Below are positions 1,898-61,916 of a stretch of DNA of 64,000 bases, in pieces. The notes under the pieces are model-generated. The model ran no database searches and had not been told where the DNA came from. It saw nothing but the letters and a program-made list of their open reading frames with translations. How positions within the stretch are numbered: the stretch's first letter is position 1; each line of letters begins with the position of its first letter. This stretch comes from Neocallimastix sp. 'constans' (taxonomy: Eukaryota). The position numbers and the translations under genes are program-made. The DNA lies in contig JBODTK010000131.1 of the NCBI GenBank assembly GCA_050613775.1, positions 248,001 to 312,000 of the forward strand. The letters run 5' to 3'.

Positions 1898-4800
1898 TGT
1901 TAACTTTATTAATATAAAGTTATATTCTAGCTTAGGTTTAATAAAATATTAAATTAAATTATATTAAATACATTGTAATCATAAATTAAATATAAATTAA
2001 TATGTATCTAGAACAAGCCACAATTAAATATAAATACATGTAATTTTCTCTGTACTTTAAATCTTTGTTAACCATTTATTTATATTCTATAAATAATAAA
2101 TTTATATTAATTAATAAAACAAATTTTAATAGATTAAGAGTCTCAAGCAACCGAAAATGTCTGACAGCGCTGAATGTTTCGTTTACAAGGGTTCCAACTT
2201 CAAAATGTGGAAAAAGCTACTCATTAACATTTTGAAAGCCAAAGATCTCTCTGATTACGCCACAACCAATATTTTCAATGAAGCCGATAGAGACCATGAA
2301 AACTTTGGGGAAATTGATAAAAACAACTCAAAGATTGTTGCCATTAACATCAAGTCTGTGGATGAATCAATTTATCAAGATATTGAGGATTTAGAATCTG
2401 CTTTTGATATGATCAAGAAACTGGAAGAGATTAACCAAGAGGCAGATGAACTAATTGTAGAGAAATTAATAAAGAAACTGAAAATTATGAAGCCTCGAAA
2501 CTATATGGAAGTTTTAAAATGTTTATCTGACATGTTAAACACTTTTAACAAACTTAAAACCGCCAATTACGATATGAGTGAAAATGACAAGATCCAATAT
2601 ATGTTCAAGGCGCTACCAAAGGAATTACAAATTGCTTTCCTGCCTGAACCTGGTAAAACAGCTGAAGAATATTATGATCTCATCAAATCAAGAAATATAT
2701 TTATTAGATGCATGAATGAACAAAAAATAATCAAGCCACAAATTAACCATAATAATCGTAACAATTATAATAACTACGATGATCCCATGGATTTAGACCT
2801 AGTATTTAACAGAAATAATAGGTATAAAAGCCACAGACAAAATAATTCTCAACGAAGAATTCCAAATAAATACTGCCATATTTGTAACCAACGTGGTCAT
2901 TTAACAAATGAATGCCATTACAACGGGAGAACAAACGGAGCCATGAATCAAACTAAATTTAATAATAATAATAATAATGACTATAATAACAGATTTAATA
3001 ACAATAATTATAATAATAATAAATTTAATAATAATTATGATAAAAATAATAATAAAAATTATAAAAATAATAATAAAAATTATAATAAAAATTATAATAA
3101 AAATTATAAAAATCGTAATAATTATATTAATAACATTGAAAATAACAATTTACCTGTTGATTATGATGATGACATAAATTATGAAAATTTAAGTCACATG
3201 ATTAACAATAGTCTTGATAGTGTTGAATTTTTAAATAACTTAAATAAATCTACTCATAACCTTAATAATTATAAAAATGATAAAAATAAATTAAATAAAA
3301 ATTTTAATAATAATCTTAATAATTATGAAAGTAAAAATAATAATTTACATAAAGAACTTAATAATGATATAAATTACACTAATAATTCTAATTATATTAA
3401 TAATTATGATAACAATAACAATTGCCCTACTAATGACAACAACGAATCAACTTGGATCTATGATTCTGGTGCAATTGTTCATATTACAAATGACCGAAGT
3501 TTATTAACTAACTTTAAAAAATACAAAATTAATTTAACATGTGCCAACAATTCTGAAATGGAATTCGAGGGATTTGGTACATACAAAGGCTCAATTAACG
3601 GTTATGACATTACTTTAAGTAAAGTATTTTATTCTAGGCACGCAAACAAAAATTTAATTAGTGGTATACAATTTGCCTACACTGAACTAATATCAATTAC
3701 TAAACTTATTAACAATGAGCCACATCTTATCATTACGGATAATGATAATAATATTATTAATACTTATAGCTCAATTGATGGAAGAAACACATTTAGAATC
3801 AAAATAAACAATAAATATAATAACTTAATTATGAACACCGATAATGATAATCTTTGGCATAGAAGACTTGGTCACTTCTATCACAAAGATTTATCAAAAT
3901 TTATAAAGGAACACACCACAAGTCATAATAACAATGACAATAATTGTATTACTTGTGGAATGGCTAAAATGAAAAGGTTACCTCACAACAGGGTAACTCC
4001 TAAAGCTACCAAGTTATTAGATGTTATCCACTCCGACATTGTTGGTCCTTTCCCGGATTCATTTTTTGGTTTTAAATTCATCATTACTTTCATTGATGAA
4101 TTCTCTAGGAAAGCCTGGATTTTTACTATGAAAAGAAAATCAGATGCCATCGATATTATTATTAATTTTTTCAAATATTTAAATAATATTTTTCCAAATA
4201 ATAAAATTACTAATTTCAAATCGGACCAAGGAAAAGAATATTGTAGTAGAAGAGTCAACAAATTCTGTAAAAAGAATGGTATTAGAAAACTCTATTCTCC
4301 TCCAAGAAATCCTCAAAATAATGGAATTGCTGAACGATTTAATCAAACCATTCTTTATTCCCTAAAATGTTTATTAAGCTGGAGTAAACTCAACATTAAA
4401 TTTTGGGATTTTGCTATACGTTATTCAAAATATCTTTATAATCTTACTCCTCATTCAGGAATAAATAATCAAATTCCCAATGAAGTATTTTATGGTACTC
4501 CCATTCATGTTAATCATATTAAAGTTTTTGGATGCATCACTTATTATAAGGATTTCTCTCCCAAGAAAGGAAAATTAGATCCTAATGCTAAAAAAGGTTT
4601 TTTCTTAGGTTTCAGTAATGATTCTAATTCTTATTTAATAATGGACTATAATAATTTTTCTCTACATCAAGTAAGAGAAGTATTATTTCAAGAAGACACC
4701 CCTGCCTGCATTACTAAAGATATTACAAAAAGAATTTCGCCTTATGTTAAAGACAATAATAATAAATTAAATTTATGTTTAGATTTATCTTTTATCAACA

Positions 4801-5153
4801 AATTATTAAGCAATTATACAAATAATAATATACATAATAATAATGATATCAACAACAATTATGACAATAATGACGATAATTATTTTATTCCTGACAATAA
4901 TAATATCATTAATATTCCTGATAATCCATCTAATAATATTAATATTCATAATAATATTCCTAATAATAATATTAATAATAATAATTATAATAATAATTCT
5001 CCTGATGATTATAATGTTAATAATAATAACTTTAACAATAATTTAAATATTGATAATTATAATATTTCATATCAAAATAATGAAAAATTTTTAATTAATA
5101 AAAATTTGTCAAAAAATGAACAAAATTTAAATTATAATTTCAATAATAATTTT

Positions 5154-5198
<45 letters not shown>

Positions 5199-7175
5199 TT
5201 AATATACGATAAAAATTTTTCAAATAATTTTATTAATTCTAATAACAATAATTTTATTGGCTCAAAAATTCAATACAATGGTAAAAATTTTTCTGATACA
5301 ATAAATTCTGAATTTAATCAAAATTTAGAAAATTTTAATCAAAATACAAATACCAATACAATAACCAATGAAAATTTTTCAAACACCAAAAATTTCTCTA
5401 ATCCAAATTATGTACAAAATTCTAATAATAAAAAATTTTTAATTAATGAAAATTTTAATTCAAAAAATGATCAAAATTTTATTAATAAAAATAATAATAA
5501 TATTAATAATTTTATTAATAATAATTCAAATAATAATAACATAAATATTTATAGAAATAATAAAAGAAAATCCAAATTTTCCAATAATAATATTATTAAA
5601 CACTTCAAACCTAATATTAATAATAATAATATTGATATTTACAATAATAATAATAATCATAATAATATTATTTCTTATAATAATAATCCTAATAATTTTA
5701 ATTACAACAATGATAATTTAATTAATACTATTGAAACTGAAAATGAAGAAGTTCCGAAAACCTATCAAAAAGCTCTCAATTGTGATCATGCCGATGAATG
5801 GGATATTGCTATCCAAGAAGAACTCAAAAATTTATATGATAATAATACAATGACTTTTGTTAAAAAACTACCAAGAGGAAAACAACCAATTTCTACAAGA
5901 TGGGTTTTTGCAATTAAAAAGGATGCAAATAATAAAATTATTAAAAGAAAGGCCAGACTTGTTGCAAGAGGTTTTGCTCAAAGATACGGTATCGATTATG
6001 AACTTACATATAGTCCGACATTAAACGTTGATTGTATAAAATTACTTCTCGCTTTTGCTGCTCAATTTCAATGGACTGTTTATCAATTAGATTTTAAATC
6101 TGCCTATCTAAACGCCGCCTTAGATAAAGAAATTTACACCGAAATTCCTTACGGCGATGAAAACTACGGTAAAGGCTATTGGATTCTAAATAAGGCATTG
6201 TACGGCCTTAAACAATCAGGCCGCCAGTGGAATAAAACCATTACAAAATTTTTAACCGAAAACAAATTTCATCAATCCACCACTGATCCATGTGTTTTCT
6301 TTAAAAAGCAGAAGGAAGAACTAACTTGTATTATAGGACTTTATGTTGATGATATGCTAATTATAGGTGAAAATTTCGAAATTGTTAGAATTGTTTCAAG
6401 AATTAAAGATAACTTTAAGGTATCAAAATGTGGATTTGCTGACTTCATATTAGGAATCAAAATAGAAAGAGAAAATAATGATATTTATATCTCACAAGAA
6501 GCATTCATTGATAATCTATTAAATAAATATAGTATAAATAATAAAAAGAAAATAAAATCACCATGTTCAGTAAATGAAAATAATGAAGATAATGAACCTG
6601 TTGACAAAATAAAATTCAAAAGTATTATCGAATCCTTAATTTATCTTGCAAGATGCACACGTCCAGACATTGCATTTGCTGTTAACTTTGCCGCTAGAAA
6701 ATCAGAAAATCCAACTCAAGCCGATTGGAAAAAAGCTATTAAAATATTAAAATACTTAAATGGAACAAAACATTATAAAATAAGATATGACGGTAAAGGT
6801 AAAATAAATGCACATACAGATTCAGATTTTGCCGGTAATCCAAATGATAGAAAATCTACTTCAGGACACATTATCTTAATGGGTACAAATCCTATTTCAT
6901 GGTATTCTAAAAAACAAACAACTGTCGCAACGTCTACTGCCGAAGCTGAATATTTAAGTACTACAGAATGTATTAAGAAAGTATTACAAATTAAAAATCT
7001 ACTTTATGAATTATTTGGAGAAACTGAAACTATAGACATATACACGGATAATGAAGCAAGCAAAAGTAGCATTGAAGCAGGTCATTTAAATCCAAAGCTT
7101 AGACATATTAGTGTTAGCTACCATTTCAACAATGAAAATATATTAAATAAAAATGTTCAACTAAAATATATTAGA
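1898..7175 (+). mobile_element. Ty1/Copia LTR retrotransposon, 3'-truncated (5' LTR ~1898-2131; no PPT or 3' LTR seen)
   Basis: The LTR starts TGTTAA and ends TTAATA, followed by a PBS and a single gag-pol ORF. RNase H is cut before the ADxxTK motif and runs into a (TTTTTATA)n tract. Confidence 0.9.
2132..2145 (+). promoter_or_regulatory. Primer-binding site complementary to the anticodon arm (positions ~27-40) of tRNA-Lys(CUU)
   Basis: GATTAAGAGTCTCA lies directly after the LTR end. Its reverse complement is TGAGA-CTCTTAA-TC, a stem strand plus a 7-nt loop with anticodon CTT. Confidence 0.75.
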
Positions 7176-7196
7176 ATTTTTATATTTTATATTTAA
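2157..7196 (+). CDS. Copia gag-pol polyprotein (Gag, Zn knuckle, protease, integrase, RT, RNase H) with long Asn-rich linkers
   Basis: Motifs in Copia order: CHICNQRGHLTNEC, WIYDSGA, LWHRRLGH, HSDIVGP..SDQGKEY..NGIAER, KARLVARGF, LYVDD, DSDFAG..RKSTSG, STAEAEY. Confidence 0.97.
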
Positions 7197-8431: not shown

Positions 8432-9730
8432 TTAACTTAATAAATACTTTATTAATTCTATATTTCCATTTTTACATGCAATTAATAATGGGGTGTCTCC
8501 ATCTTTATTTTTCTTATTGATATTCATTCCATAATGAATCAATTTTTTAACTTCTTCAATATTACCTTGCTTACATTCAGAGGTTAATAAGGTTTCATTA
8601 TTATCTCTTTTCTTCTTAATTTTTTCAATTATATAATTCTTCTTTTCCAATTTTTTTTCTTCTTTTTCCTCTTTTTCTATTCTCAGTAATTCCAAATCTT
8701 TTTTTATTTTTTCTTTCTCTTTTTTTTCTTTTTCCAATTCTATTTCTGTTATTTCATTTTCAATTTCTAATACTTCATAATCCCTATTTTCATTTTCTAT
8801 TCTTTCATTCTTATTAAATTCATTAAATTTTTTCAAAAAGTAACTGTTTCTGCTGAATATTACTTCAATTATATTTTTATTTTTACAAAAATTGATTAAT
8901 TCGATAAATTTAGAATTTATTTCTGAAATATTCTTTAATTTACAAAGCGGATATTTTTTCGAAATCATATTTTCAATATCATTTTCATCAATTCTTAATT
9001 TTATTTCTTTTTCTATGGAATATTCCACCAGCAATTTAAACATTTCAATATTATTATTTTGTATTGCCCCAAATATTGGAGTATATCCATCTTCATTTTT
9101 TTCATTTAATTTCAAAATAATTTTATTTTTATTGGCATAATCTATTAACAATTGAACCATTTCAACATTATTGTAATAAGTGGCAACTAAAAGTGGATAC
9201 CATCCATATTCATTTTTTTCATTTAATTCTAAAATAATTTTATTTTCAGTGGCATAATCTATTAACAATTGAACCATTTCAATATTATTACGATTAGTGG
9301 CTTGTAAAAGTGGATACCATCCATATTCATCTTTTTCATTTAATTCCAAAATAATTTTATTTTCAGTGGCATAATCTATTAACAATTTAACTATTTTAAT
9401 ATTATTATTATCAATGGCTTTTAAAAGTGGATAATAATTTTCATAAAAAAGTGGATACCATCGATATTTATTTTTTTCATTTAATTCTAAAATAATTTTA
9501 TTTTCAGTGGCATAATCTATTAATAATTGAACCATTTCAATATTATTACAAGAAGTGGCATATAAAAATGGATAATTTCCATCTTCATCTTTTTCATTTA
9601 ATTCTAAAATAATTTTATTTTCTGTGGCATAATCTAAAATAGTTTTTACTTTTTGAGTATTGCCACTTCCAATTTCCTTATTAAGTTCTTCTTTCAAATC
9701 TTTTTTACTTTTATCAATAAATAAATCCAT
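8432..9730 (-). CDS. Ankyrin-repeat protein with a Lys/Glu coiled-coil segment
   Basis: Repeated YPLLxA..NNIEMVQLLIDYA..LNEK units and a C-terminal GDTPLLIACKNGNIELIKYLL. Confidence 0.9.
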   Translation of the reverse strand: MDLFIDKSKKDLKEELNKEIGSGNTQKVKTILDYATENKIILELNEKDEDGNYPFLYATSCNNIEMVQLLIDYATENKIILELNEKNKYRWYPLFYENYYPLLKAIDNNNIKIVKLLIDYATENKIILELNEKDEYGWYPLLQATNRNNIEMVQLLIDYATENKIILELNEKNEYGWYPLLVATYYNNVEMVQLLIDYANKNKIILKLNEKNEDGYTPIFGAIQNNNIEMFKLLVEYSIEKEIKLRIDENDIENMISKKYPLCKLKNISEINSKFIELINFCKNKNIIEVIFSRNSYFLKKFNEFNKNERIENENRDYEVLEIENEITEIELEKEKKEKEKIKKDLELLRIEKEEKEEKKLEKKNYIIEKIKKKRDNNETLLTSECKQGNIEEVKKLIHYGMNINKKNKDGDTPLLIACKNGNIELIKYLLS

Positions 9731-10349
9731 AATTTTTAAATTTTTTTTTATTACTATTCAATTATTATTTTTTATACTTTTTTATATATATTTTTTTTTT
9801 GAAGTTTCTAATAAAAGAATGAAATTATTTATAATTTATGTTTAATTTTTTTTTATAATTTATTATTAAAATTATTATTATTATTTTTTTTTTTTATTAA
9901 ATTATTTTATGAATTTAAAAAAAAAATTTTTTTTTTTCTTTTTATACTAATAAAAATAACTTAAAAAAATTTTTTTAGTTCCATTTTTTATTTTTTTTTT
10001 CCATTTTTTTTAAATTTTTATTTAAATAAGTAAAAAAAAAAATTCAAAAATTTGGAACTAAAATCAAAAAATTTTAATTTTTTTAATTTTTTTATTTCTA
10101 TTTTTATTATTTAAATTAAATGAATAAATATAATGTAATATATTATTATTATATATAATATATATTAAAGTATTATTTACATATATTATAAATTAATATT
10201 ATTTTAAATTCTTTTATTGAATTTTATATCAATAAATAAATGAATATATTATAATACATTACAATATATATTAAAATATTTACATATTTAATAAATTATT
10301 TTTATTTTAAATTCTTTTAATTGCTATAAATAAAAAAAGGATTAAGAAT

Positions 10350-18344: not shown

Positions 18345-19688
18345 TTAACTTGGCTTCTTTATTTTTGTATTTTTCAATAAGATATTAATTTCATCAGTTT
18401 TTGTTTTTATTTTTTTTTTCATTCTCCAAATTCCTTTTATTTTCATTTGGTAATCATAATATGATAAATGTTCCTGTTCTTTTAATTTATTTATTAATTC
18501 ATAAAAATTTGGTTTCATTGGAAATAGTTTATTTAAAGAATTATTGAGTGATTCTGAAGCATTATTGGTTATATGTTCAATATTATTATAATAATTCCAA
18601 CTTTTCATATCGTAACCAATTAAATATGTTTCATAAAAATATTCTAAAAATTTTAAAAATTGACAAGAATTTTTTTCAATGGATTTAGTTTTAATTAATG
18701 AAAAAATATCCATTATGTATTCAGGGTTGATAAATGGTAAGTTTGAAATTCCTTTGTAATAATTAAATATTTTTCCATCATCGTTCACTTCATTACGGCA
18801 CAATTCATTTTTTTTAATTTCTAATAAATTTTTATAATGCCAAATACAGTATTTAATATTTATATTAGGAAATATTTTTTTAACTGCTTTGGATATGCCT
18901 TTTTCAAAATCGCAATGTACATTTTTTGGTTCAGTTATAATATTATTATTAGAATTTTGTTTTAATTTATTGAATAACATTTTATATGTTTTTTGCTTTT
19001 TATTTCTTAATATTGCATAAGAAGTAGCATAAAAACTATTCAATTCTTTAACGTAAGTTCTAGTAATAAACACTTGTTGACTAAATTTAGGTGCGATATA
19101 AAAAGTACCATCCACAAATATATCATTATTATATTTCTTAAATAATTTTGCTTGAAAAGGGGATTGAAAAATTACTAAATCAGAATTTTTGAATATCATA
19201 AAATCTTCATTTCGTTCAGTTTTATAATATTCAGATTCATTAGGAATTTCATTAAAAGTTGTTACATTGGATGGTAGTTTTTTATTAATACTTCTTAATA
19301 TTAGAGTTTTAACTGAAATATATTCTGGACACGGATATATAAATCCCATTTCTTTAGAAATTTCATTATATAGTCTTTTTCGTTTTATATCAAAAGGATT
19401 TGAATGTTTTTTAATTTCATCTTTAATTTTATGTTTCATTACAGATAGGGATACACTATATTCGTTTCCAGGATGATTATGTAAACTCTCATATTTTAAG
19501 ATTTCTTTCTCATTATTTAAAATAATAAAAGATTTACATTTATTATTTTTTTTATATTCGGTACATTTATAAACTCTTGAATTATCTTTCCTTGAATGTG
19601 AAAAATTAAATTTATATTGTTTATTAATAATGATTTGTTCTTCTCCTTTATTAGACTCACTTATATAAATAGTTATGTTTTCTTCCAT
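18345..19688 (-). CDS. MULE transposase (N-terminal FLYWCH/WRKY-like Zn finger plus DDE domain), probably with a frameshift near the C-terminus
   Basis: Motifs YKC..C..HNH, FVDGTFY, HCDFE, CIWH and TNNASES. An alternative frame continues homology with the 60-61 kb copy to ~18270. Confidence 0.92.
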   Translation of the reverse strand: MEENITIYISESNKGEEQIIINKQYKFNFSHSRKDNSRVYKCTEYKKNNKCKSFIILNNEKEILKYESLHNHPGNEYSVSLSVMKHKIKDEIKKHSNPFDIKRKRLYNEISKEMGFIYPCPEYISVKTLILRSINKKLPSNVTTFNEIPNESEYYKTERNEDFMIFKNSDLVIFQSPFQAKLFKKYNNDIFVDGTFYIAPKFSQQVFITRTYVKELNSFYATSYAILRNKKQKTYKMLFNKLKQNSNNNIITEPKNVHCDFEKGISKAVKKIFPNINIKYCIWHYKNLLEIKKNELCRNEVNDDGKIFNYYKGISNLPFINPEYIMDIFSLIKTKSIEKNSCQFLKFLEYFYETYLIGYDMKSWNYYNNIEHITNNASESLNNSLNKLFPMKPNFYELINKLKEQEHLSYYDYQMKIKGIWRMKKKIKTKTDEINILLKNTKIKKPS

Positions 19689-21035: not shown

Positions 21036-21705
21036 AAATATAAAAATATAAAAATATAATATTAATAGAAAAATATAAAAATATAATATCAATAATAAAA
21101 TATAAAATATAAAAATATAATATAAATATTAATAATAAAAAATAAAAAATAAGGTTATAAGGAAAATAATTATTTATCATTTTCCTTATAACATGATTGT
21201 CAAAAAAAAAAAAATTGTATAAAAATATTTTATTTTTTATTGACCTTTTTAATTTTTATTTATTTATTTATTTACTTATTTATTTATACATTTATTTCTT
21301 TTTTACTTAAAATTATATTAAATTTTATGGCGTAATAATATAAATTTTAAAAGCCACAAATAAATAGATGGCTTATTAAAATTTCAAAAAAAAAAAAAAT
21401 TGGCGAAATGGACCACATTCTATAGTTAGTTATATAATAACTTAGAATATAATATTATTAATGTATTAAATAATTAAATATGTATTGTTATGTAAATGTA
21501 TTGTGGCGCATATATGACGTACATCATATACTTACATAAACAACCAAATATAGTTATATTAAATGTAATAAATAAATAATATTTATATAATTGTATTATA
21601 CAATTAATTATAAAGAAGAACCTTATTAAATAAAGATATTATTAAAAGTAGAGATCGAAATCTCAATTTCAAAGAAATATTTTTAAAACTAATAAATATA
21701 TTTAT

Positions 21706-22900
21706 TTATATTTATATATAATTTTTTTTTTTTTTTTTATATAATTTAAATATATATATATTTATATATTTATTTATATTTATATTTAATATTTATATTT
21801 ATATTTATATTTATATTTATATTTATATTTAATATTTATATTTATATTTAATATTTATATTTATATTTATATTTATATTTAATATTTATATTTATATTTA
21901 TATTTATATTTATATATTTATTTATTTATTTATATTTATATTTATATTTATATTTATACTTATTTATAATTTTATATTATTTTTTTTTTCAAAAATTAAA
22001 ATAAATAATAAATAAATAAAAAAAAATTAATCATTTTACAAATTATGTTTAGGAATGCTTCCTTCATATCATTCAGGATGCAAAGAAGCAAGGAAAAAAG
22101 TTGTGTTGAGCGAAATAAGCGACGAAGAGGCTCTAGAAAAAGCAAGTGAAATCTATGACGTGGCTTTGGAATTACAAAAAGCAGGGCAGACTTGTACAGC
22201 ATTGTTAAAATTTGAAGAGGCTTTTTTTGGAGAAAAATCTGCAGTGCCGTCGTCAGAAAAATTATATGGCACTTTTCGTGAGTGTCTTTTAAAAAATGAA
22301 TTAGTTGATAGTTGTTTTGTTTCTGTGCTGAAGAATTCTTTTATTTCTGCTGCCTCTTCCTCCATAGCTTCAATTTTTATGCAACAGGGACAATATCTTG
22401 AAGCTGCCTTTTGGTATGGTGTATCCTATGTAAATGGAAACTCCTCGGCTAGAAACTCATTTGATACCGCGGTGACTTATTACAATAGTTCTACTCACGC
22501 TAAGGGAGAGTAAATTTGTATACTAAATTAATCATTCTTTTGTTATTCATGTTTGTTGGCAGGCGTTCGTTAACCTTAGATCCTTTTATGGAATATGTAA
22601 AGGTTTATTTTAAAGAAGGTTATTCAAATGTGTACTCCTACGTTAGTTACACTTTTAGTTAAGGAAGAGGGTATAATAATTGAAAGTAATAGTTTTTATA
22701 TTTATTTATTTTTTTTTTTTTTTTTTTAATACAAAAAATAAAAATAAAAAATAAATAAATAAATTAAAATTAATTGAAATGATAATTAATTTACAAGCAA
22801 AAAACATTAGAATTTAAATAATTTTCAACTCAACATTAAAAATATTTCATTTCAATTTTTTATTTTTTTATTTTATTTTTTTTATTTTATTATTTATTTA
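21706..22900 (+). repeat. Right arm of the inverted duplication
   Basis: Reverse complement of ~700-1897. Confidence 0.9.
22055..22513 (+). CDS. Hypothetical 152-aa protein (copy 2)
   Basis: Identical to copy 1 except for one G>R change (FGEC vs FREC). Confidence 0.55.
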   Translation: MLPSYHSGCKEARKKVVLSEISDEEALEKASEIYDVALELQKAGQTCTALLKFEEAFFGEKSAVPSSEKLYGTFRECLLKNELVDSCFVSVLKNSFISAASSSIASIFMQQGQYLEAAFWYGVSYVNGNSSARNSFDTAVTYYNSSTHAKGE

Positions 22901-23512
22901 TTTTTATTTATTATTTAAATTTATTTTTTATTATTTATTTATTATTTATTATTTTTATTTATTTATTTATTTTTTTTTTTTTTTTAATCTTCATCCTGAA
23001 GTATGGTATTTTATTTTTCATTTTAAGAATAATGTAAACTCTGAACATTAAACTATTTTTTATCATTCAAGTATTTTTATATATAAATATATATATAAAA
23101 GTATTATTTTTTTTTTTTATTTATTAATTAGAAAAATTAATGTAGAAGTTATAGTTTTTTTTAAAAAAAAAAATTATAAATTACATAAATAAAAAAAGAA
23201 TTTATAATAATATTAAAAATAAATATATATATATGATATTTTTAATTTTAGATACTCAAATAAAAAATATTTATATATATGTATTACATTGAATTATAAT
23301 ATATAAATTTAAACACTTTTTAATACAAGTTTGGATAATTCAAAATTAATAATAAGAAATAAAAAAATATAGAAATAAATAGAAATTAATAAATAAACAT
23401 AATAATATTTTAATAAAAGAAATAATTTTAATTGAATAAACTAAATTTATAAAGAAAAGCCTTAAATAAAAAATATAATTAGTTAGGTAGTAAAGATAAT
23501 TTATGGAAGTTG

Positions 23513-37400: not shown

Positions 37401-38250
37401 ATTTATTATTTTATTTTATTAATTATGTGATTTAGAATTATCTTTATTCAATATTTAGTTTCTCTCTATTAGAGTAGTAGTAATGCTCTTGAAGGATTAG
37501 TTTTATCTATTTCCAATATGTAAACTTCTTATAAAAATTGATCTTTTTATTGAGAAGAAAAGTTAGAAAAAAGAAAAACGCAAGATTTCTAATTTTTTGA
37601 AGTATTATTTATTTTTGAAGTATTTCATCTAAAGTATTTTTTAGACATAAAGAAAAAATGTAAAAATACTAATGGCTGAACTAATTTATTATGTCTATTT
37701 ATTTCTTTGTTGTGGCGCATTATTATAAAATGTGGCGCATTATTAAAATAAAAGAATTATGATTTTAATTATGAGAAATGCATTACATATAAAATTATAA
37801 ATAAATTAAATAAAATTTAATTATTAATATTTTTTATAAGATAAAGATTCATATTAAAAATAGAAATAAAAATATATTATAAAATATTTTTTTATATTTT
37901 GGACATAAATTATTTTTTTTTAATAGATTGAATATGATTGAATTTCTCTTTGTTTTACTTTATTTCCTTTTTTTTTTTTTATTCCAATCATCTCATATAT
38001 AATTATAAATATTTATATTTTGCATTATATATTTGATTTTAATTAAATGAATTAAAAATATAATATAAAAAAATTTTTTTTTTATTAATTTAAAAAATAT
38101 AATAATATATATTTTATAATAATATATATTTTAAATAAATAATAGCTTTTATAATTATCAATTATATTTATTAAAATAAAAAATAATTTTATATTATAAA
38201 GAATAAATTAGAAAAAATAATAATAAAACACAGTATAAAATACAATTAAT

Positions 38251-40710
38251 ATGAATAACCGTGAAAAGAAGAGAAATATAAAATCTGAAGATTATAATAA
38301 TAATGGACATACGTCTAAAAGATTAAAAACTCTAACAAATGATCAAGAAAATGATAAATATATTACTTCTTCTGAAATAAAAGAATTAATAAAGAATTCA
38401 AATTTAAAGAAATTAAAAAATATTTTTAATATTTCAAAGTTTTATGATGATGAATTTATTAAACGTTTACTTTTTCTATATAAAAATAAAACTCCTACCA
38501 AGAATTTAAATTATGAAATTTCTAAAAATAAATATAAAATTAAATTAGATTTTAAAAGATGGTATGATTTTTCCATAATTGATACTTATTTAATTGAAAA
38601 TGGAAATAAAAATTTATTAAAATTTTTAGTAAAACATGGAGTGGATACAAAAAAAATATTTTATAAGGATAATGAAATACTTTTATTTGATGTGTGTGAA
38701 AGTGGAAATAAAGATTTAGTAGAATTCTTAGTAGAAAATGGAGCAGATATAAATGAAGAAAGTGATTATGGTACAACACCATTATTTTATGCATGTGAAA
38801 GTGGAAATAAAGATTTAGTAGAATATTTAGTAGAGCATGGAGCAGATATAAATAAAGAAACTGAAGATGGTGAAACACCATTATTTTATGTCTGTGAAAG
38901 TGAAAAAAAAGATTTAGTAGAATATTTAGTAGAGCATGGAGCAATAATAAATAAAGAAAATGAATATGGTAAAACACCATTATTCAACGCATGTAAAAGC
39001 GGAAATAAAGATTTAGTTGAATATTTGGTAGAACATGGAGCAGTTATAAATAAAGAAATTAAATACTGTGAAACACCATTATTTTATGCCTGTGAAAGTG
39101 GAAATAAAGATTTAGTTGAATATTTAGTAGAACATGGAGCAATTATAAATAAAGAAAATAAAAATGATGAAACACCATTATTCAGCTCATGTAAAAGCGG
39201 AAATAAAGATTTAGTTGAATATTTGGTTGAACATGGAGCAGTTATAAATAAAGAAAATAAAAATGGTGAAAGACCATTATTCAACGCATGTAAAAGCGGA
39301 AATAAAGATTTAGTAGAATACTTAGTAGAAAATGGAGCAGATATAAATAAAGTAAATAAATACGGTAAAACACCACTATTTTATGCCTGTGAAAGTGGCA
39401 ATAAAGATTTAGTTGAATATTTAGCTGAACTTGGAGCAGATATAAATAAAGAAAATAAATATTGTGAAACACCATTATTTTATGCCTGTAAAAGTGGAAA
39501 TAAAGATTTAGTTGAATATTTAGCTGAACTTGGAGCAGATATAAATAAAGAAAATAAATATTGTGAAACACCATTATTTTATGCCTGTAAAAGTGGAAAT
39601 AAAGATTTAGTTGAATATTTAATTAAACATGAAGCAGTTATAAATATGGAAGGTGAATATGGTATAACACCATTATTAATAGCAATTATTAATAAAAATA
39701 AAGATTTAGTAGAATACTTAGTAGAAAATGGTGCAGATATAAATAAAGAAAATGAAGATGGTGAAACACCATTATTTAAGGCAATTGGATATAAAAATAA
39801 AGATTTAGTAGAAATATTAGTAGAAAATGGAGCAAATATAAATAAAAAAAATAAAGATGGTGAAACACCATTATTTAAGGCCTGTGAAACTAAAAAAAAA
39901 AAATTAGTAGAATACTTAGTAGAAAATGGAGCAGATATAAATAAAGAAAATAAATATGGTAGAACACCATTATTTAAGGCCTGTGAAAGTGGAAAAAAAG
40001 ACTTAGTTGAATATTTGGTAGAACAAGGAGCAGATATAAATAAAGAAAATAGAGATGGTGAAACACCATTATTTAATGCCTGTGAATTAGAAGATAATGA
40101 TATAATAGAAATATTAATAGAAAATGGAGCAGATATAAATAAAGAAAATAGAGATGGTGAAACACCATTATTAATAGCAATTATTAATGAAAATAAAGAT
40201 TTAGTAGAATACTTAGTAGAAAATGGTGCAGATATAAATAAAGAAGATAAAAGTGGTGAAACACCATTATTAATAGCAATTAGCAGTGGAAATAAAGAAT
40301 TACTAGAATACTTGGTAGAAAATGGTTCAGATATAAATAAAGAAAATAAAGATGGTGAAACACCATTATTAATAGCAATTAGAAGTGAAAATATAGATTT
40401 ATTAGAATACCTAGTAGAAAATGGAGTAGATATAAATAAAGAAGATAGAAATGGTGAAACGCCATTATTTATAGCAATTGAATTAGGAGCAAAAGATTTT
40501 GTAGAATTCTTAGTTGAACATGGAGCAGATATAAATAGGGAAAATAAATTTGGTGAAACACCATTATTAATAGCAATTAGCGATGAAAAAAAAGAATTAC
40601 TAGAATACTTAATAGAAAAAGGAGCAAATATAAATAAAAAAAATAGAAATGGTGAAACACCATTTTTAAAAGCAATTGAATTAGGAGCAAAAGATTTGCA
40701 GAATACTTAG
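38251..40710 (+). CDS. Ankyrin-repeat protein (about 21 repeats of 33 aa); ends at a frameshift, with decayed repeats continuing to ~41165
   Basis: GETPLFxAC.SGNKDLVEYLVEHGADINKE repeats throughout. Confidence 0.93.
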   Translation: MNNREKKRNIKSEDYNNNGHTSKRLKTLTNDQENDKYITSSEIKELIKNSNLKKLKNIFNISKFYDDEFIKRLLFLYKNKTPTKNLNYEISKNKYKIKLDFKRWYDFSIIDTYLIENGNKNLLKFLVKHGVDTKKIFYKDNEILLFDVCESGNKDLVEFLVENGADINEESDYGTTPLFYACESGNKDLVEYLVEHGADINKETEDGETPLFYVCESEKKDLVEYLVEHGAIINKENEYGKTPLFNACKSGNKDLVEYLVEHGAVINKEIKYCETPLFYACESGNKDLVEYLVEHGAIINKENKNDETPLFSSCKSGNKDLVEYLVEHGAVINKENKNGERPLFNACKSGNKDLVEYLVENGADINKVNKYGKTPLFYACESGNKDLVEYLAELGADINKENKYCETPLFYACKSGNKDLVEYLAELGADINKENKYCETPLFYACKSGNKDLVEYLIKHEAVINMEGEYGITPLLIAIINKNKDLVEYLVENGADINKENEDGETPLFKAIGYKNKDLVEILVENGANINKKNKDGETPLFKACETKKKKLVEYLVENGADINKENKYGRTPLFKACESGKKDLVEYLVEQGADINKENRDGETPLFNACELEDNDIIEILIENGADINKENRDGETPLLIAIINENKDLVEYLVENGADINKEDKSGETPLLIAISSGNKELLEYLVENGSDINKENKDGETPLLIAIRSENIDLLEYLVENGVDINKEDRNGETPLFIAIELGAKDFVEFLVEHGADINRENKFGETPLLIAISDEKKELLEYLIEKGANINKKNRNGETPFLKAIELGAKDLQNT

Positions 40711-48380: not shown

Positions 48381-50844
48381 TTACCAACATTTTCCATAAT
48401 GGGATTGACATCCAGAACTCTTTTTACAATACTTTGTGGAAGTACCACAGTAACCATACTTACTACAGCATTCACCATGAAGACATTTGCCATAATTTTT
48501 ACCACATCTTCCATTATTAGATTTACTAATAGCTTTCTTAGTAGTGGTCTTAGTAATGGTCTTCTTTGCTATGCAGGTTCCAAATTCTGATTGACAGCCT
48601 TCACTTATATTACAGTATTTACTAGAAATTCCACACCAACCATATTTACTACAGCATTCACCTTTTGGACATTTACCATATTTACTACCACATCTTCCAT
48701 TAGTACTAATAACTTCATTACATTTACCAAATTCTGATTGACAACCTGCTCCACAGTACTTTTCACTCTTGCTACACTAACCATACTTACTAAAGCAGTA
48801 TCATTCGATACATCTACCAAAACCTTTACCACATCTGTCAGTGTTTCCTTCAATTTCACTTTTACAAGTACCATAGTCAGATTGGCAACCCTTATCTATC
48901 TTTCAATATTTATCAGATTTTCCACACCAACCATACTTACTACAACAGTATCCTTCAGCACAGCTACCTATACCTTTACCGCATTGTTCTGGAATTATCG
49001 TTCTGGAAGTATCAGTACATTCACCATATAGAGGTTGGCAACCATTCTTGACATCGCAATACTTCTCAGATTTTCCACACCATCCATACTTGCTACAGCA
49101 TAAACCTTCTGCATAGCTACCAATTCCTTCACCACATTTCCATGGATCACGAGTTTGCTGATCTTCTTCTTCACTTGGTTGATCTTCTCCTTCATTTGGT
49201 GGTTTTTTTTCAGTTGGTTGTCTTTCAGTTGGTTGTCTTTCAGTAGGTTGATCTTCTTCTTCAGTTGAATCTTCATTTTCTTCTTCTTTTTCCTTATTTT
49301 CTTCTTCATTTTCTACTTCTTCTTCTTTATTTTCTTCTTTTTCTTCTTCTTCCTTACTTTCTTCTTCTTCTTCATTTTCTTCCTCTTCTTCTTCATTTTC
49401 TTCTTCATTTTCTTCTTCTTCCTCTTCTTCTTTTTCTTCTTCTTCATTATTTTCTTCTTCTTCATTTTCTTCTTCTTTTTCTTCTTCTTCCTTATTTTCT
49501 TCTTCTTCATTATTTTCTTCTTCTTCTTCTTCATTTTCTTCTTCTTTTTCTTCTTCTTCCTTACTTTCTTCTTCTTCATTATTTTCTTCTTCTTCATTAT
49601 TTTCTTCTTCCTCTTCCTCTTCTTCCTTATTTTCTTCTTCTTCCTCTTCTTCATTTTCTTCCTCTTCATTTTCTTCCTCTTCTTCTTCATTTTCTTCTTC
49701 TTTTTCTTCTTCCTTTTCTTCTTCTTCTTCTTTTTCTTCTTCTTCATTATTTTCTTCTTCTTCATTATTTTCTTCTTCTTCTTTATTTTCTTCTTCTTCT
49801 TCTTCCTCTTCTTCCTTTTCTTGTTCTTCCTCTTCATTTTCTTCTTCTTTTTCTTCTTCTTCCTTACTTTCTTCTTCTTCATTGTTTTCTTCTTCTTCTT
49901 CTTTTTCTTCTTCTTCCTATTCATTTTCTTCTTCATTTTCTTTTTCATTTTCTTCTTCTTCTTCTTTTTCTTCTTCTTCCTTACTTTCTTCTTCTTCATT
50001 ATTTTCTTCTTCTTCTTCTTCTTTTTCTTCTTCTTCCTATTCATTTTCTTCTTCATTTTCTTTTTCATTTTCTTCTTCTTCTTCCTTTTCTTGTTCTTCC
50101 TATTCATTTTCTTCTTCATTTTCTTTTTCATTTTCTTCTTCATTTCTTTCTTCTTCTTCATTTTCTTCTTCTTTTTCTTCTTCTTCATTTTCTTCTTCTT
50201 TTTCTTCTTCTTCTTTTTCTTCTTCTTCTTTTTCTTCTTCTTCTTTTTCTTCTTCTTCCTTTTCTTCTTCTTCTTCTTCTTCTTCTTCTTTTTCTTCTTC
50301 TTCCTTTTCTTCTTCTTCCTTTTCTTCTTCTTCCTTTTCTTCTTCTTCTTGTTCTTCCTATTCATTTTCTTCTTCATTTCTTTCTTCTTCTTCATTTTCT
50401 TCTTCTTCTTCTTTTTCTTCTTCTTCCTTACTTTCTTCTTCTTCATTATTTTCTTCTTCTTCTTCTTCTTCTTCATTTTCTTCTTCTTCTTCTTCTTCTT
50501 CCTTTTCTTCTTCTTCTTGTTCTTCCTATTCATTTTCTTCTTCATTTCTTTCTTCTTCTTCATTTCTTTCTTCTTCTTCATTTTCTTCTTCTTCTTCTTT
50601 TTCTTCTTCTTCTTCTTTCTTCTTCTTCATTTTCTTCTTCTTCTTCTTCATTTTCTTCTTCTTCTTCTTCTTCCTTTTCTTCTTCTTCTTGTTCTTCCTA
50701 TTCATTTTCTTCTTCATTTTCTTTTTCACTTTCTTCTTCATTTCTTTCTTCTTCTTCATTTTCTTCTTCTTCTTCTTTCTTCTTCTTCATTTTCTTCTTC
50801 TTCTTCTTTCTTCTTCTTCATTTTCTTCTTCTTCTTCGTCATTT

Positions 50845-50876
<32 letters not shown>

Positions 50877-53042
50877 CTTTTCTTGTTCTTCCTATTCATT
50901 TTCTTCTTTTTCTTCCTTTTCTTCTTATTCTTCCTTTTCTTCTTCTTCCTTTTCTTCTTCTTCTTGTTCTTCCTATTCATTTTCTTCTTCATTTTCTTCT
51001 TCCTTTTCTTCTTCTTCCTTTTCTTCTTCTTCTTGTTCTTCCTATTCATTTTCTTCTTCCTTTTCTTCTTCTTCTTGTTCTTCCTATTCATTTTCTTCTT
51101 CATTTTTTTCTTCATTTCTTTCTTCTTCTTCATTTTCTTCTTCTTCTTCTTTATTTTCTTGTTCTTCCTCTTCTTGTTCTTCCTCTACTTGTTCTTCCTC
51201 TTCTTGGTTATTTAAAATTACTTTTAAAAAAATATTAATAATATTTTTTATTTTTATATATTATTAATACTTACTAGCTATTTATATAAAAAAATTTTTA
51301 TTATAAAAAATCATTATTAATTATATATTTAAAATATTGATAATAAATATATATATATGATGATATTTAAAAATTAATTTCAAAAAATTTTAAATAATGT
51401 ATTTAAATACATATTTATACTTACCATCTATTAATATAAACCAATTTTTTAATATAAATTTAATAACAACGAAATATGTAAAATAGATATAATTGATATA
51501 TGTTAATTATAAATTAATTTGAAAAATTTGTAATAATATATTTACATTAAATACATATTTTTACTTACTATCTATATATATATGAAACAATTTGTTGAAT
51601 AATATTAATGAAATATTTTAATAATTAATAATAAATATATGTTATTTACAAATAAACTTCAAATTTTTAAATAATATGCTTAATTATTTATACTTACGAG
51701 CTAATTTATATAAATCAGTAAATTATATATATTAAATTAATAATAATTAAATTGTTTAAATAATTAAAATAAATATTTCTTATCTTTAAACTGATTTCAA
51801 AAATTTTAATTATATCTAAATATAAATTTAAACTTACGTCCTATTAATATATAACAATTTGTTTTTTAAAAATTAAAATAATTAATTATTCGAATGATCA
51901 TTAATATATATAAATTATTTAAAATTAATTTCAAATAATTTTAATATTATATTTATAAATATATATTTATACTAACCAACTTTATATGAAATAATTTTTT
52001 GTATTAAATGTATGATAAAAAAATATTATAATAATACGTAATAAATATTTGTTTTTTTGCAATTACTTTCAAAAAATATTTATAATATTTTTTTATATAT
52101 ATTTATACTCACTAGCTATTTATATAAAACAATTTCAAATATAAATATTTATAACAATTAAATATTTTAATAATTGATAATAAATATGTTATTTACAATT
52201 AATTTCAAAAATATTTAATAATATACTAAAATATATTTATACATACCAGCTATTTATATAAAACAATTTAAAAAATAAAAATTTATAATAATTAAATATT
52301 TGAATAATTGATAATAAATATACGTTATTTATGATTAATTTTAATAGTTGTTAATAATATATTTATATATATATATATTTAAACTTACTTCCTATTTAAG
52401 TGAAACAATTTGTTGATTATAATTTAAAATAATAAATATTTGAATAATTGACAATAAATATAAGTATGAAATAATTTTTTGTATTAAATTCATAATAAAA
52501 AATATTACAATAATACGTAATTAATATATATATATTATTTTTCTTTTTTTTTTTTTTTTACAATTACTTTCAAAAAATATTTATAATATTTATATATATA
52601 TATATATTTATACTCACTAGCTATTTATATAAAACAATTTCAAATATATATATTTATAACAATTAAATATTTGAATGGTTAATAATAAATATATGTTGAT
52701 GATAATTACTTTTAAAAAATACTAATTATATATATATTTATTTATTTATATTATTTATATATACGGCCTATTTAAATGAAACAATTTGTTGATTATAGTT
52801 TATAATAATAAATATTTGAATAATTGACAATAAATATTAAATATGAAATAATTTGTGGTATAAAATTTATAATAATTATATTTAAAATATAAAAATATAT
52901 AATAATTAAATATTTGAATGGTTAATAATTTTTAATTTTAAATTAGTATAATATAAAAAAAATAATAATAATAATAACTTATATTTTTAATTATTTTAAT
53001 AAATTACTTGCTTGAAATAATAGCAAGAAAAACCCTGTACAT
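48381..53042 (-). pseudogene. Secreted-type chitin-binding protein gene: short exon 1 (53042-53012), eleven 3-nt micro-exons, and a large exon (51220-48381) encoding a ~2 kb Glu-rich tract plus five CBM18/hevein domains; disrupted as assembled
   Basis: Five RCG..G.C..G.CCSKYGWCG....C...GCQS.(Y/F)G.C units lie at ~48385-49145, ending KCW-TAA at 48381. In-frame stops occur in domains 2-3 and indels in the (GAA)n tract. Splice signals are listed in the findings. Confidence 0.85.
49265..51205 (-). repeat. Coding (GAA)n-rich low-complexity tract (poly-Glu with N/K/Q interruptions)
   Basis: TTC repeats on the plus strand with higher-order units. These explain the spurious poly-S/L/F/K ORFs. Confidence 0.95.
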
Positions 53043-53069
53043 TTTATTTTATTTTATTATTTATTTAAA

Positions 53070-54853
53070 AAGCATTTAGAGGAGCGAATAGAGTTTATAT
53101 ACAGAGTTAGAAGAATTGTCTTCTTTAGTGTTGTACTCGACGAATAGATTTGGTTCTAGACTAGGTAAAACTCTATAAGAGAGCACCGTAGCCTATTATA
53201 AAGGAAAACGGTTCTAGGTTTGCAACAACTCTGGCAAATAAGGGGCTTACGTCACCGAAGGCGTAAGATTAAAATTATATAGTATTTTAAAATTTTATTT
53301 CGTGCTTACTCGCGGCACTAGTAATAATAGTACTGACAGTTTTTTCCGTTGTTGTGAGTCAATAGTTTTATTCTATTTTATCGATCAATAATTTTATAAT
53401 TAATATTATAATTAATATTATAATTTTATAATTAAAAAAAAAAGATTAAAATATAAATATAAGGTTTATACGACTTCCAAAGCGACAGAAGTTGGTCTCT
53501 GTTTTCGTAACATTTTAGTGTTCAGATACTATTGATATAGGGGAAAATAATTTGTTTTATTCATTTCAGCTAACAATAAATTAGATATAATAAAGAATCT
53601 AATAATATTACTTCCTTTTGTCTATAAGACATTAACAATCGATTTTATCTGCGTTATCACTAAATGGCTAAAGGAACTTATCGTATAAAACTTTGATAGA
53701 TTATATATTAAGTTAATCCAATACTATATAATCTAGTTTATATTTCAGTAATTTTTGATAAATTATTATAAAATAGGAATATTTAATTATAAAATATTAT
53801 AAAGTGTTATTAAAATTTTGTGTTCTTATCTATTAACCTTGGAGACCTACCAATAAACTACTTTTGAACTTTTGGAATTTTTGCTACTTATCTACTACCT
53901 TTTGGATTATTGGAATCTGTACTATCATTTTGGGAACTTCTGGATTCTAACGCCTAATATTTACCTTTGAAAACTTATTCTACTCTACCTTATCAATTTC
54001 AATATGGACAACAATAACCATGAAATTCCTATCTTTAAGGACGGTTTTGCTGGTGATCGTCGATTCTTTAAAGGATTTCTAGTTAAAATGGGAACTAATT
54101 TTTATGATTCAACCGGAAAGATTTGCAAACGATGAAGCTAAAGTAATTTATATCATTTCTCGCTTGTATGGAAACGCCATGAATCGGGCAGCTACTCTTA
54201 TTGAAAACCAAGATCCTTGTCTCCTTAATTATAATCAGTTCATTGCTAGACTAAAATCAGTATTTGGAAGCTATGATTCTACCTTTATTGCCAACCAGAA
54301 ATTAAGAACAATCAAACAAAGACGAGTTGGTGAAGTCAGGAATTATATTTTAGAATTTAATAAATACCCCGATGAATCTTCTTGGAAAGAAGAAGCTAAG
54401 ATGGACACCTTTCTTGCCGGTCTACATGACCATATTGCTACTAGAATTTTAGAAATGTTTCCTGGACCTCAATCCCTCTTTACTATGCAAACAATAGCGT
54501 CTAGAATCGATAATCGTATTTCTACTCATAGACAATTCTCCAATTTCCAAGGTCAAAATTCATATAATAGTAATAATAATAAAATTAAAAAGGGGAAAAA
54601 ATCATTCTTTTTCAAAAACAATCTAAATCCAAATCTCGTGGTCCTCTATCTCAAGAAGAAAAGGAAAGAAGAAGAAGAAATAATCTTTGTTTATATTGTG
54701 GATCCTCTGAACATTCTCTCGACAATTGTCCACTTAAAAATAAATACAAAAATAAATCTTTATCAAGTAGCACTTATATTTCTAATCCCGAATCAAAACC
54801 AATATCTAGACCAAGAATTTCTTATCCTTCTCAGACTGTGGAAAATTTCTTAG
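53070..54853 (+). mobile_element. Gypsy 5' portion: partial LTR (ends ...GTAACA at ~53512), leader and frameshifted gag
   Basis: Retrotransposon-gag motifs QPERFANDEAKVIYIISRLYGNA..ANQKLRTIKQ..YILEF, and Zn knuckle LCLYCGSSEHSLDNCP in a shifted frame. Confidence 0.85.
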
Positions 54854-59400: not shown

Positions 59401-60234
59401 ACAGTATAATATTATACTATATATTTGTGCAATATTTAGGAAGAATAATTAACCTCAAGTTAATTATAATTTTCTTTTATTTATAAGTAATTTATTATAT
59501 ATTAATTCTAAGTTAATTATAAATTAATATTTTATATTCTACTATTATTTTGAAATATAAGTAGATTTAATGGGTGCACGAGTGATTAACCTCTTTCAGT
59601 AGAATATATATATTAATGTATATATATTAATACATGATATTTACGAATTCTATGTTTCTTTTCTTTTCTCTATCCACAAGTATTTATAGTTTTGAGTATG
59701 GAATTAAATATATGGTAATTTAAATTGATACTTTATAAAATGACATGAGTAATTCTTTATATTTCATAAATATTGAAATTTAGGGAAATCATTATAAAAA
59801 AAAAAAAAATTTTTATTTCTTATTAATGTTTACAACAACAGGCGATTATAATGATTAAAATTATTATAACAAAAATTCCAATTCCAATTCATAGCCAAAG
59901 CGAATGTTTTATTATTTTCTTGGTCTTGTTCATTATAAAATTGATCATCATTAATTTTTGTTTCTGAGGGGTCATCAGAAACTTCTATTTCTATTTCTAG
60001 ATTAGAGTCTGGTATCTTCCCTTCTTTGTCATATATGATATATCAGTAGTCTCCATTATCACAACTACTGTTTCCATTATTGTTTGTATTAACAATACTG
60101 TCAATATTTTTATTACATCTATAATCATTGAGAATATATGAGGTTTTATTTATCTTTTACTAAAAGAATGATTTCATAGCAACTGAAACAGCCCAAGTTT
60201 CAAGATCTGCGCATGCTGGGGTTTAAAATATGAT

Positions 60235-61916
60235 AGTTCACCTAATCATCCTAAAAAAGAATACGATGTATCTCTAACTATAATGAAACATAAAATTAAA
60301 GATGGAATTAAAAAAAAAGTTCAATTCCTTTTAGTATAAAAATAAAACCCCTATATAATAAAATTTCTAAAGAAAAGGGACTTATATGTTCAAAGTATAG
60401 TTCAATTAAATCTCAAATATCAAGAAATTTAAATAAAAAACTACCATTCAATGTAACAACATTGGCTGAAATTCCTAGTGAATCTGAATATTATAAAACA
60501 AAGCGAGGTGAAAATTTTATGATATTCAAAAATTCTAATTTAATAATTTTTCAATCCCCTTTTCAAGCAAAATTATTTAGGGAATATAATGATGATATTA
60601 TTTGTTGATGGTACATTTTTTATTGCCCCTAAATTTAGTTATCAAATATTTATTACAAGAACTTATACTAAAGAATTATATAGTTTTTACACTATTTCTT
60701 TTGCAATATTAAAAAATAAAGAACAAGAAACATATAAAATATTATATGAAAAATTAAAAAAAAAAAAAAAAAATTAATACATGTAACAATAATATTATAA
60801 TTGAATCAAAAAAATTTGCATTATGATTTTGAAAAGGGCATATCTAAAGCAGCAAAAACAATATTTCCTAATACCAATATTAAATATTGCATTTGGCATT
60901 ATAAAAAATCACTAGAAATTAAAAAAAAATAAATAATGTTCTAATGAAGTAAAAAATGATAATAATATATTTATTTATTTATAAAGCTATTTCAAATTTA
61001 CCATTTATAAATCCTGAATACATATTTGATATTTACGTTTCAATTAAAATTAAATCCATTAAGAATAATTATTGTCAATTTTTAAAATTTTTAGAATATT
61101 TTTATAAAACATATTTAATTGATTATGATATGAAAATTTGGAATTATTATAATAATATAGAACATATAACAAACAATGCCTCAGAATCACTCAATAATTA
61201 TTTAAATAATTTATTTCCAACAAAATCATCTTTATATGAATTAGTAGATCAATTAAATGAACTTGAACATTTATCATATTAGGATTATCAAAGAAAAATA
61301 CGAGGAATTTGGAAAAAAAAAAAAGAGCCATAAATGAAGCAAATGAAATCAGTGTCTTAATTGAACGCTACAAAAATATTGAAGCCAAGTTAAATTGATG
61401 CTAAATGTGATAGAAATAATATTATTAATTTGAGGTTTGATTGTTTAACTGATTTAAATAATTTAATATAAATATTATTTTATAATAAATAATTAAGAAA
61501 TGAGGAATGACCAAACAAAATAATCAAAATTCTGTCATTCAAAAATTTAATTTATAAATCTTATTTAATTTAAACAGTATAAATAAATATTCAAATACAA
61601 TATATAATTAATAATTTTATCATTATAATTATTATTTTTATAATAACATTTAAATAAAAGAATTATTATTAATAACATTTATACTTTTAATAACATTTAT
61701 ATTTTTATATAATTCTTTTATAAATAACATTTAAAAAAAAGAATTAAAATCATAAAATCTAACCATTATATGATTTATTTAATTATTCACTTAATAATTA
61801 ATTTAAAAATTGAAGTAAAAAAATAATACAATAAAATAATATTATGTAGCATAATATAACTAAAGCCACATATTTATATATATATCACGTGAAAATTAAC
61901 GTAATGAAACCTTTCC
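60235..61916 (+). mobile_element. 5'-truncated MULE with a transposase pseudogene and its 3' terminus
   Basis: FVDGTFFIAPKF and NNIEHITNNASESLNN are homologous to 18345-19688. The terminus at 61880-61916 matches the 17310 end (ttttcacgtgatatat). Confidence 0.88.

Follow-up and report, generated by a model that had tools for sequence, protein, structure and literature searches.

The minus strand of a 64,000-nt stretch of genomic DNA from Neocallimastix sp. 'constans' (the window) carries an array of eleven AG-NNN-GT units. On balance, the sequence signals make it probable that the units hold real spliceosomal exons one codon in length, arrayed at the 5' end of a chitin-binding (CBM18) gene of Neocallimastix that has since become a pseudogene. 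The features of the locus are collected in Table 1.

Table 1. Features of the array and its flanks, numbered from the first letter of the window.
Feature	Position	Strand	Basis or remark
Probable first coding exon, 31 nt, ATG in A-rich context	53012..53042	minus	sequence
Alternative: 27-nt internal exon	53033-53007	minus	between CAG and a GT donor, also phase 1
Eleven 3-nt putative exons	51275..52767	minus	coordinates, shuffles, GC, phase-1 codon bias, triplet-versus-flank identity
Micro-exon 1, GCC	52767-52765	minus	donor gtatat
Micro-exon 2, CTA	52620-52618	minus	donor gtgagt
Micro-exon 3, GAA	52391-52389	minus	donor gtaagt
Micro-exon 4, CTG	52249-52247	minus	donor gtatgt
Micro-exon 5, CTA	52115-52113	minus	donor gtgagt
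Micro-exon 6, TTG	51979-51977	minus	donor gttagt
Micro-exon 7, GAC	51840-51838	minus	donor gtaagt
Micro-exon 8, CTC	51700-51698	minus	donor gtaagt
Micro-exon 9, ATA	51571-51569	minus	donor gtaagt
Micro-exon 10, ATG	51427-51425	minus	donor gtaagt
Micro-exon 11, CTA	51277-51275	minus	donor gtaagt
Eleven homologous AT-rich introns	51278..53011	minus	62-86% pairwise identity
Block duplication and in-frame unit loss	51950..52700	minus	pairwise and multiple alignments
Truncated twelfth intron: donor and 5' half of repeat unit	51207..51274	minus	alignments
Glu-rich repetitive coding-like region, ~640 codons	49284..51206	minus	sequence reading
Acidic/Pro linker and five CBM18 (Chitin_bind_1) repeats	48381..49283	minus	Pfam PF00187, alignment to ORY70871.1

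Anatomy of the array and coding properties of the triplets

All eleven units claimed in the first-pass annotation are present on the minus strand, each with its triplet and donor. They had been described as recurring every 130-150 bp or so; nine of the ten start-to-start intervals are indeed 129-150 nt, but one is 229 nt. Tandem Repeats Finder assigns the array a period of about 136-139 with ~70% matches. The introns are 126-147 nt long, with the exception of intron 1 (244 nt) and intron 3 (226 nt). The donor is GTAAGT in six units, GTGAGT in two, and GTATGT, GTATAT or GTTAGT in one unit each; a good donor had been credited to every unit, which is correct for most of them but not for gtatat and gttagt, which are weak. 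Acceptors are TAG in ten units and AAG in unit 6.

The region 53011-51221 contains 16 occurrences of AG-N3-GT, that is, the eleven units and five overlapping by-products, whereas 1000 dinucleotide shuffles average 1.16 and never exceed 5; this comparison ignores the tandem-copy origin of the units, and the count alone is compatible with a satellite. Other AG-to-GT spacings between 0 and 30 yield 0-2 matches each, save spacing 7, where the 11 matches are the second GT within the same donors. Elsewhere in the 64-kb window we found neither a second AG-N3-GT array of this kind nor an ordinary intron-bearing host gene to serve as a splice-site control. Since the units are tandem copies, the argument rests on the contrast between flanks and triplets rather than on the number of motifs.

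The triplets are much more variable than the flanks. The mean pairwise identity between units is 79% in the flanks and 36% in the triplets; the upstream flanks of units 1 and 3 are 95% identical, but two of their three triplet bases differ. G or C occupies 15 of 33 triplet positions (45%) versus 121 of 1605 positions in intron interiors (7.5%; P = 4e-9). Read in phase 1, the triplets form ten codons, none of which ends in G or C, with a codon adaptation index (CAI) of 0.78; the phase-0 reading has a CAI of 0.22, and the phase-2 reading is shut by two stops. When the 33 triplet bases were shuffled 100,000 times, only 0.27% of the shuffles reached 0.78 in their best frame (P = 0.003), with a codon table built from five ORFs of the window, two of them transposon genes. 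None of the eleven triplets has T at the third base, and all 66 ordered skip junctions are free of stops; the chance of having no T-ending triplet is ~0.06 (by hand, from a T frequency of 0.223) and is suggestive only. The AG and GT letters are invariant at 44 of 44 positions compared to 85% in the near flanks (P about 9e-4), but this check is partly circular and was given little weight, as the units had been picked on those letters. The triplets are therefore likely to be codon-sized exons rather than satellite DNA. Both the one-codon exon length and phase 1 had been claimed before; the former gains support from triplet variability, GC content and codon bias, and the latter from evidence independent of the earlier argument, namely the codon bias and the two stops in phase 2.

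Alignments of the units reveal part of the history of the array. The 3' half of intron 2, exon 2 and the 5' part of intron 3 closely match the 3' half of intron 5, exon 5 and intron 6. At the point where intron 6 reaches its acceptor and exon 6, intron 3 continues into the 3' half of another unit; nothing in intron 3 corresponds to exon 6, so that one unit has dropped out without shifting the frame. The junction recurs in intron 1, whose last ~100 nt closely resemble those of intron 3. Whole units of the array were thus gained by duplication and, at least once, lost by deletion, and every such event altered the array by a single codon with the frame preserved. The probable cause of these gains and losses is unequal crossing-over. 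The locus thus preserves both duplication and in-frame deletion steps.

Flanks of the array and decay of the CBM18 gene

The 31-nt ATG exon claimed upstream of the array is there and ends in phase 1. Its donor, absent from the first-pass annotation, is of the GC type (gcaagt, a consensus GC donor). The alternative 27-nt reading has the same codon adaptation (0.52 each), which does not tell the two apart. The hydrophobic stretch in the predicted N-terminus is short, as judged by eye, and the predicted N-terminal peptide resembles none of 199 CBM18 proteins (the first 199 of 294 fetched; best local score 30). Other Glu/Asp-rich CBM18 proteins of gut fungi start with ordinary hydrophobic leaders.

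The DNA just upstream of exon 1 may be a repeat family rather than a promoter. The segment 53075-53320 has >95% identity to short contigs in two RNA-type sequencing runs (X1 and X2), and 40 nt of it (53231-53270, overlapping a small hairpin) were found in other contexts in two further runs (X3 and X4). A Ty3/gypsy-type gag fragment (PF03732, PF19259) is located at 54083-54853 on the plus strand, ~1 kb upstream of the gene and opposite to it; no LTR pair was found upstream of exon 1. The window is largely transposon debris. It includes a 1.3-kb inverted duplication (599-1898 and 21704-22986; 96.6%) with a 160-aa ORF, one copy of which adjoins an apparently intact 1687-aa polyprotein ORF (2133-7196), copia-like by eye. 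ORFs with ankyrin repeats, and a MULE-like transposase ORF present twice (82%), were recognized by eye at 8432-9757 (minus), 38239-40710 (plus), 18345-19688 (minus) and 60223-61574.

At the other end of the array, the first 68 nt past exon 11 are a donor and the 5' half of a normal unit. The acceptor proposed for the large exon, at 51221, exists as letters but lies within a mid-intron block that also carries an AG in introns 2, 3 and 6 (52709, 52567 and 52066), where skipping is necessary, and it does not have the T-rich block that precedes real acceptors. About 14 nt further, near 51207, the sequence switches abruptly to Glu codons. The large exon had been said to need exactly phase 1, and 51221 does fit this phase; however, the match is weak evidence because wherever one GAA codon follows another, the AG at their boundary suits phase 1. 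An ungapped acceptor matrix did not help much: it scored 3 of 11 true acceptors negative in leave-one-out, and its score of -6.5 for 51221 was not counted as evidence. The frame joined via 51221 stops after 66 codons, a stop that the first-pass annotation had not reported. A deletion near 51207 probably joined intron 12 to the Glu-rich exon, and it would have taken the true acceptor together with a stretch of undefined length after it.

A working gene is not supported: the large exon, of about 2.8 kb, contains 14 in-frame stops, of which the Glu run has 11 and the CBM18 part three, and the CBM18 gene is a pseudogene. The stops of the CBM18 part are at 48905-03, 48803-01 and 48779-77, and cysteines are lost too. 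Two ORFs match PF00187, each at two stretches (48 and 63 bits; cut-off 27.8), and the third CBM18 repeat was read by eye. The stops of the Glu run are ten copies of a repeat unit with an in-frame TAG and one TAA. Between 49922 and 51089 (minus), a single change from Glu to a stop is present in ten copies owing to growth of the Glu repeat; the repeat thus expanded after the stop had arisen, which implies turnover after the death of the gene. Three frame switches near 50817-50637 in the Glu run cancel out and are possibly assembly errors. Read-through of the repeated TAG was considered and rejected, as TGA and TAG stops also strike conserved Cys, Gly and Trp in the CBM18 part.

The nearest database relatives are partial models or fragments that do not include N-termini. 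The CBM18 part is identical, as read by eye, to the partial model KAL6604297.1 of Neocallimastix sp. 'constans', which skips a stretch containing all three CBM18 stops. Between the CBM18 part and the partial protein ORY70871.1 of N. californiae, identity is 66% over 271 columns. An IMG fragment (P0213) matches the last 101 residues exactly; it starts off frame, which, judged from the protein only, suggests a sense codon at the position of the first CBM18 stop here. No full-length close homologue, and no intact one with an N-terminus, was among the matches of word-based protein searches and of a HMMER search of 1.84 billion representatives. An Atlas look-up gave a best score of 0.85, a lead only.

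In sequencing data, none of the 24 listed runs contained half of the words of the CBM18 part, the best share being 0.14. Contigs of four of these runs (X1-X4), which derive from other isolates, were compared with 51200-53320 at 85% likeness. The exon-1 bin had zero depth, and the contigs showed only short AT-rich matches to the array and no joint at exon 1 or the triplets; gaps in other isolates are uninformative. A two-unit AT-rich motif had no matches in genome_contigs and none in viral_contigs.

Origin and possible role of the array

In a working gene, splicing would have linked the triplets to the ATG exon in phase 1, so that each codon took its first base from the end of one exon and its other two from the start of the next. 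Unequal crossing-over would have added or removed single codons without a frameshift. By analogy with Tuber, exon skipping may have varied the N-terminal tip further, and a skip in phase 1 would also have made a new hybrid codon. The loss of the end of intron 12, of the true acceptor and of the sequence beyond would have come later. This reading, a codon-sized exon array of the CBM18 gene itself, agrees with the position of the array on the same strand as the Glu/CBM18 exon and in a sensible order relative to it. Against it, the protein searches gave no intact homologue with an N-terminus, the hydrophobic stretch of the predicted N-terminus is short, the junction to the large exon resembles a rearrangement that could have fused two genes, and all splice dinucleotides are intact despite the decay of the downstream exon.

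The junction is the starting point of the main alternative, in which the array is real but comes from another gene and was set beside the CBM18 pseudogene by deletion, rearrangement or mis-assembly. We consider this rather unlikely. It would account for the abrupt break of intron 12 into Glu codons where a normal acceptor block is expected, for the absence of a similar N-terminus among the 199 CBM18 proteins checked, with the ordinary hydrophobic leaders of the gut-fungal Glu/Asp-rich ones, and for a window made mostly of transposon debris. Yet the ATG exon, the array, the acidic region and the CBM18 repeats follow one another on one strand, no other candidate CBM18 5' exon is present between 51207 and the gag fragment upstream, and the closest relatives are partial and stop short of the N-terminus, as expected if the 5' end of such genes defeats gene finders. 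The intactness of the splice sites could instead mean that the array is still spliced apart from the dead CBM18 region, yielding a short peptide (66 codons, with 51221 as a cryptic acceptor) or a non-coding RNA. All 22 splice dinucleotides are intact and the triplet frame is open and codon-biased, in the face of 14 stops downstream; but the AG at 51221 is homologous to AGs that are skipped inside three introns, some donors and acceptors are weak, and a target of 33 nt plus 44 splice bases can outlast modest neutral decay, so that continued splicing seems improbable.

The array could also be an AT-rich minisatellite, or a single long intron, with AG-NNN-GTAAGT as part of the unit and triplets that were never exons. 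A tandem repeat of ~138 nt would copy one chance motif, and in several metagenome loci simple satellites do match the motif with a triplet that never varies. The triplets of a satellite should, however, diverge like its flanks, and here they are 36% identical compared to 79%; moreover, they are GC-rich and form preferred codons in one phase, the one that also fits the upstream ATG exon. We regard this explanation as very improbable.

We speculate that intact gut-fungal genes encode chitin-anchored proteins with a long acidic stalk and an N-terminal tip made from phase-1 codon-sized exons, the locus described here being a dead copy. Combinatorial surface variation would then have arisen independently of the ascomycete NLR/HET arrays. 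This proposal is doubtful. Were it correct, any skip pattern would stay open, since codons are split across exons and no exon ends in T, and skipping would write residues present in no single exon. Arrays of this kind escape ORF finders and probably short-read aligners too; given that the nearest gene models have no N-termini, a class of variable proteins may be absent from the annotations of gut fungi. The present copy is of limited value, as it is a pseudogene and its splicing is predicted.

Comparison with codon-sized exons in other genomes

A scan of metagenome contigs for three TAG-NNN-GTRAGT units returned 127 stretches from 13 of 64 parts, from which ~630 are estimated overall. We analysed 125 loci; 96 are variable arrays, with at least 8 units and 5 different triplets, and the remaining 29, which are satellites or short arrays, were excluded. 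Like the array described here, the metagenome arrays consist of homologous tandem introns with variable triplets between AG and GT or GC donors, and they reach 60 units in length. The period is at most 85 nt in 93 of the 96, versus about 138 here. Most of them are not phase 1, as follows from the pooled stop counts (198 of 1624 phase-1 junctions, 29 of 1624 phase-2 junctions, and 20 of 1886 whole triplets); a phase-1 stop occurs in 71 of the 96 arrays, and seven look phase-1 compatible.

Among the flanking ORFs of 38 loci (56 of 57 found), HET is encoded downstream of the array at five loci, two of which may be the same gene, and ankyrin repeats upstream at three. CBM18 is not among the 56 flanking ORFs, and the loci from the 13 of 64 parts include neither a homologue of the present array nor a locus with GC <22%; arrays of gut fungi may lie in the remaining parts. 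A 77-nt period and similar triplets at the two ends of the array are common to many metagenome loci, which suggests a large unannotated gene family. Two loci (L046 and L061) stand apart from the 60-85-nt class, their variable 3-nt arrays having a period of 129 nt and 40% GC. In another locus (L032:1900-2500), a 3-nt array lies just ahead of a HET ORF; its donors alternate between gtaagt and gcgagg, and its introns are homologous.

The first-pass annotation knew of no description of such an architecture. Codon-sized exon arrays are in print, however, for NACHT-ankyrin (nank, NLR) genes of Tuber melanosporum: passages that credit them to Iotti et al. 2012 (Fungal Biol 116:261, as cited in PMC4986451, PMC3689799, PMC13449251 and PMC9815663) describe tens of 3-bp mini-exons diversified by alternative splicing. 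As far as we found, such arrays had previously been published for this one ascomycete immune-receptor family, and no paper joining micro-exon terms with Neocallimastigomycota or Neocallimastix was found in a search that left most subscription journals outside. What appears to be new here is the occurrence in Neocallimastigomycota, the phase-1 split of codons and the likely link of the array to a CBM18 gene.

Short exons are also known from other systems. In Coprinopsis cinerea, a passage of PMC12230235 gives 27 exons of 3 nt in 26 genes; these show that fungal spliceosomes cope with exons of 1-3 nt, but they are single exons, unlike the tandem array here. The micro-exon genes (MEGs) of Schistosoma, as outlined in part of PMC10526429, have exons mostly of 15 bp (range 3 or 6 to 81) and introns of 100-5000 bp, and the micro-exons encode the greater part of a short secreted protein whose signal peptide is conserved. 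The Neocallimastix array resembles them in having at least ten very short exons, multiples of three, near the N-terminus, where skipping could give variation. It differs in that all of its exons are 3 nt, that homologous repeats form the introns between them and that the array precedes a large multidomain exon; the micro-exons add up to 33 nt compared to ~2.8 kb, and so do not provide most of the coding sequence.

The closest parallel is with Tuber, where, judging from the citing passages, a fungal gene likewise contains a run of consecutive 3-nt exons and short introns and keeps its frame whichever exons are used. The Tuber genes are from Ascomycota and have NACHT and ankyrin domains; the host here is from Neocallimastigomycota, and its downstream exon is Glu-rich with CBM18 repeats, NACHT and ankyrin domains being absent. 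The host is neither a nank gene nor a MEG. Tuber has tens of such exons; the array here is N-terminal, counts eleven and belongs to a pseudogene. Alternative splicing has been reported for Tuber and is predicted here, and the exons here are phase 1, the phase in Tuber not being given in those passages. The presence of such an array in an early-diverging phylum, in an unrelated gene and in another phase than most metagenome arrays suggests that this architecture arises repeatedly by tandem copying of an intron plus a codon.
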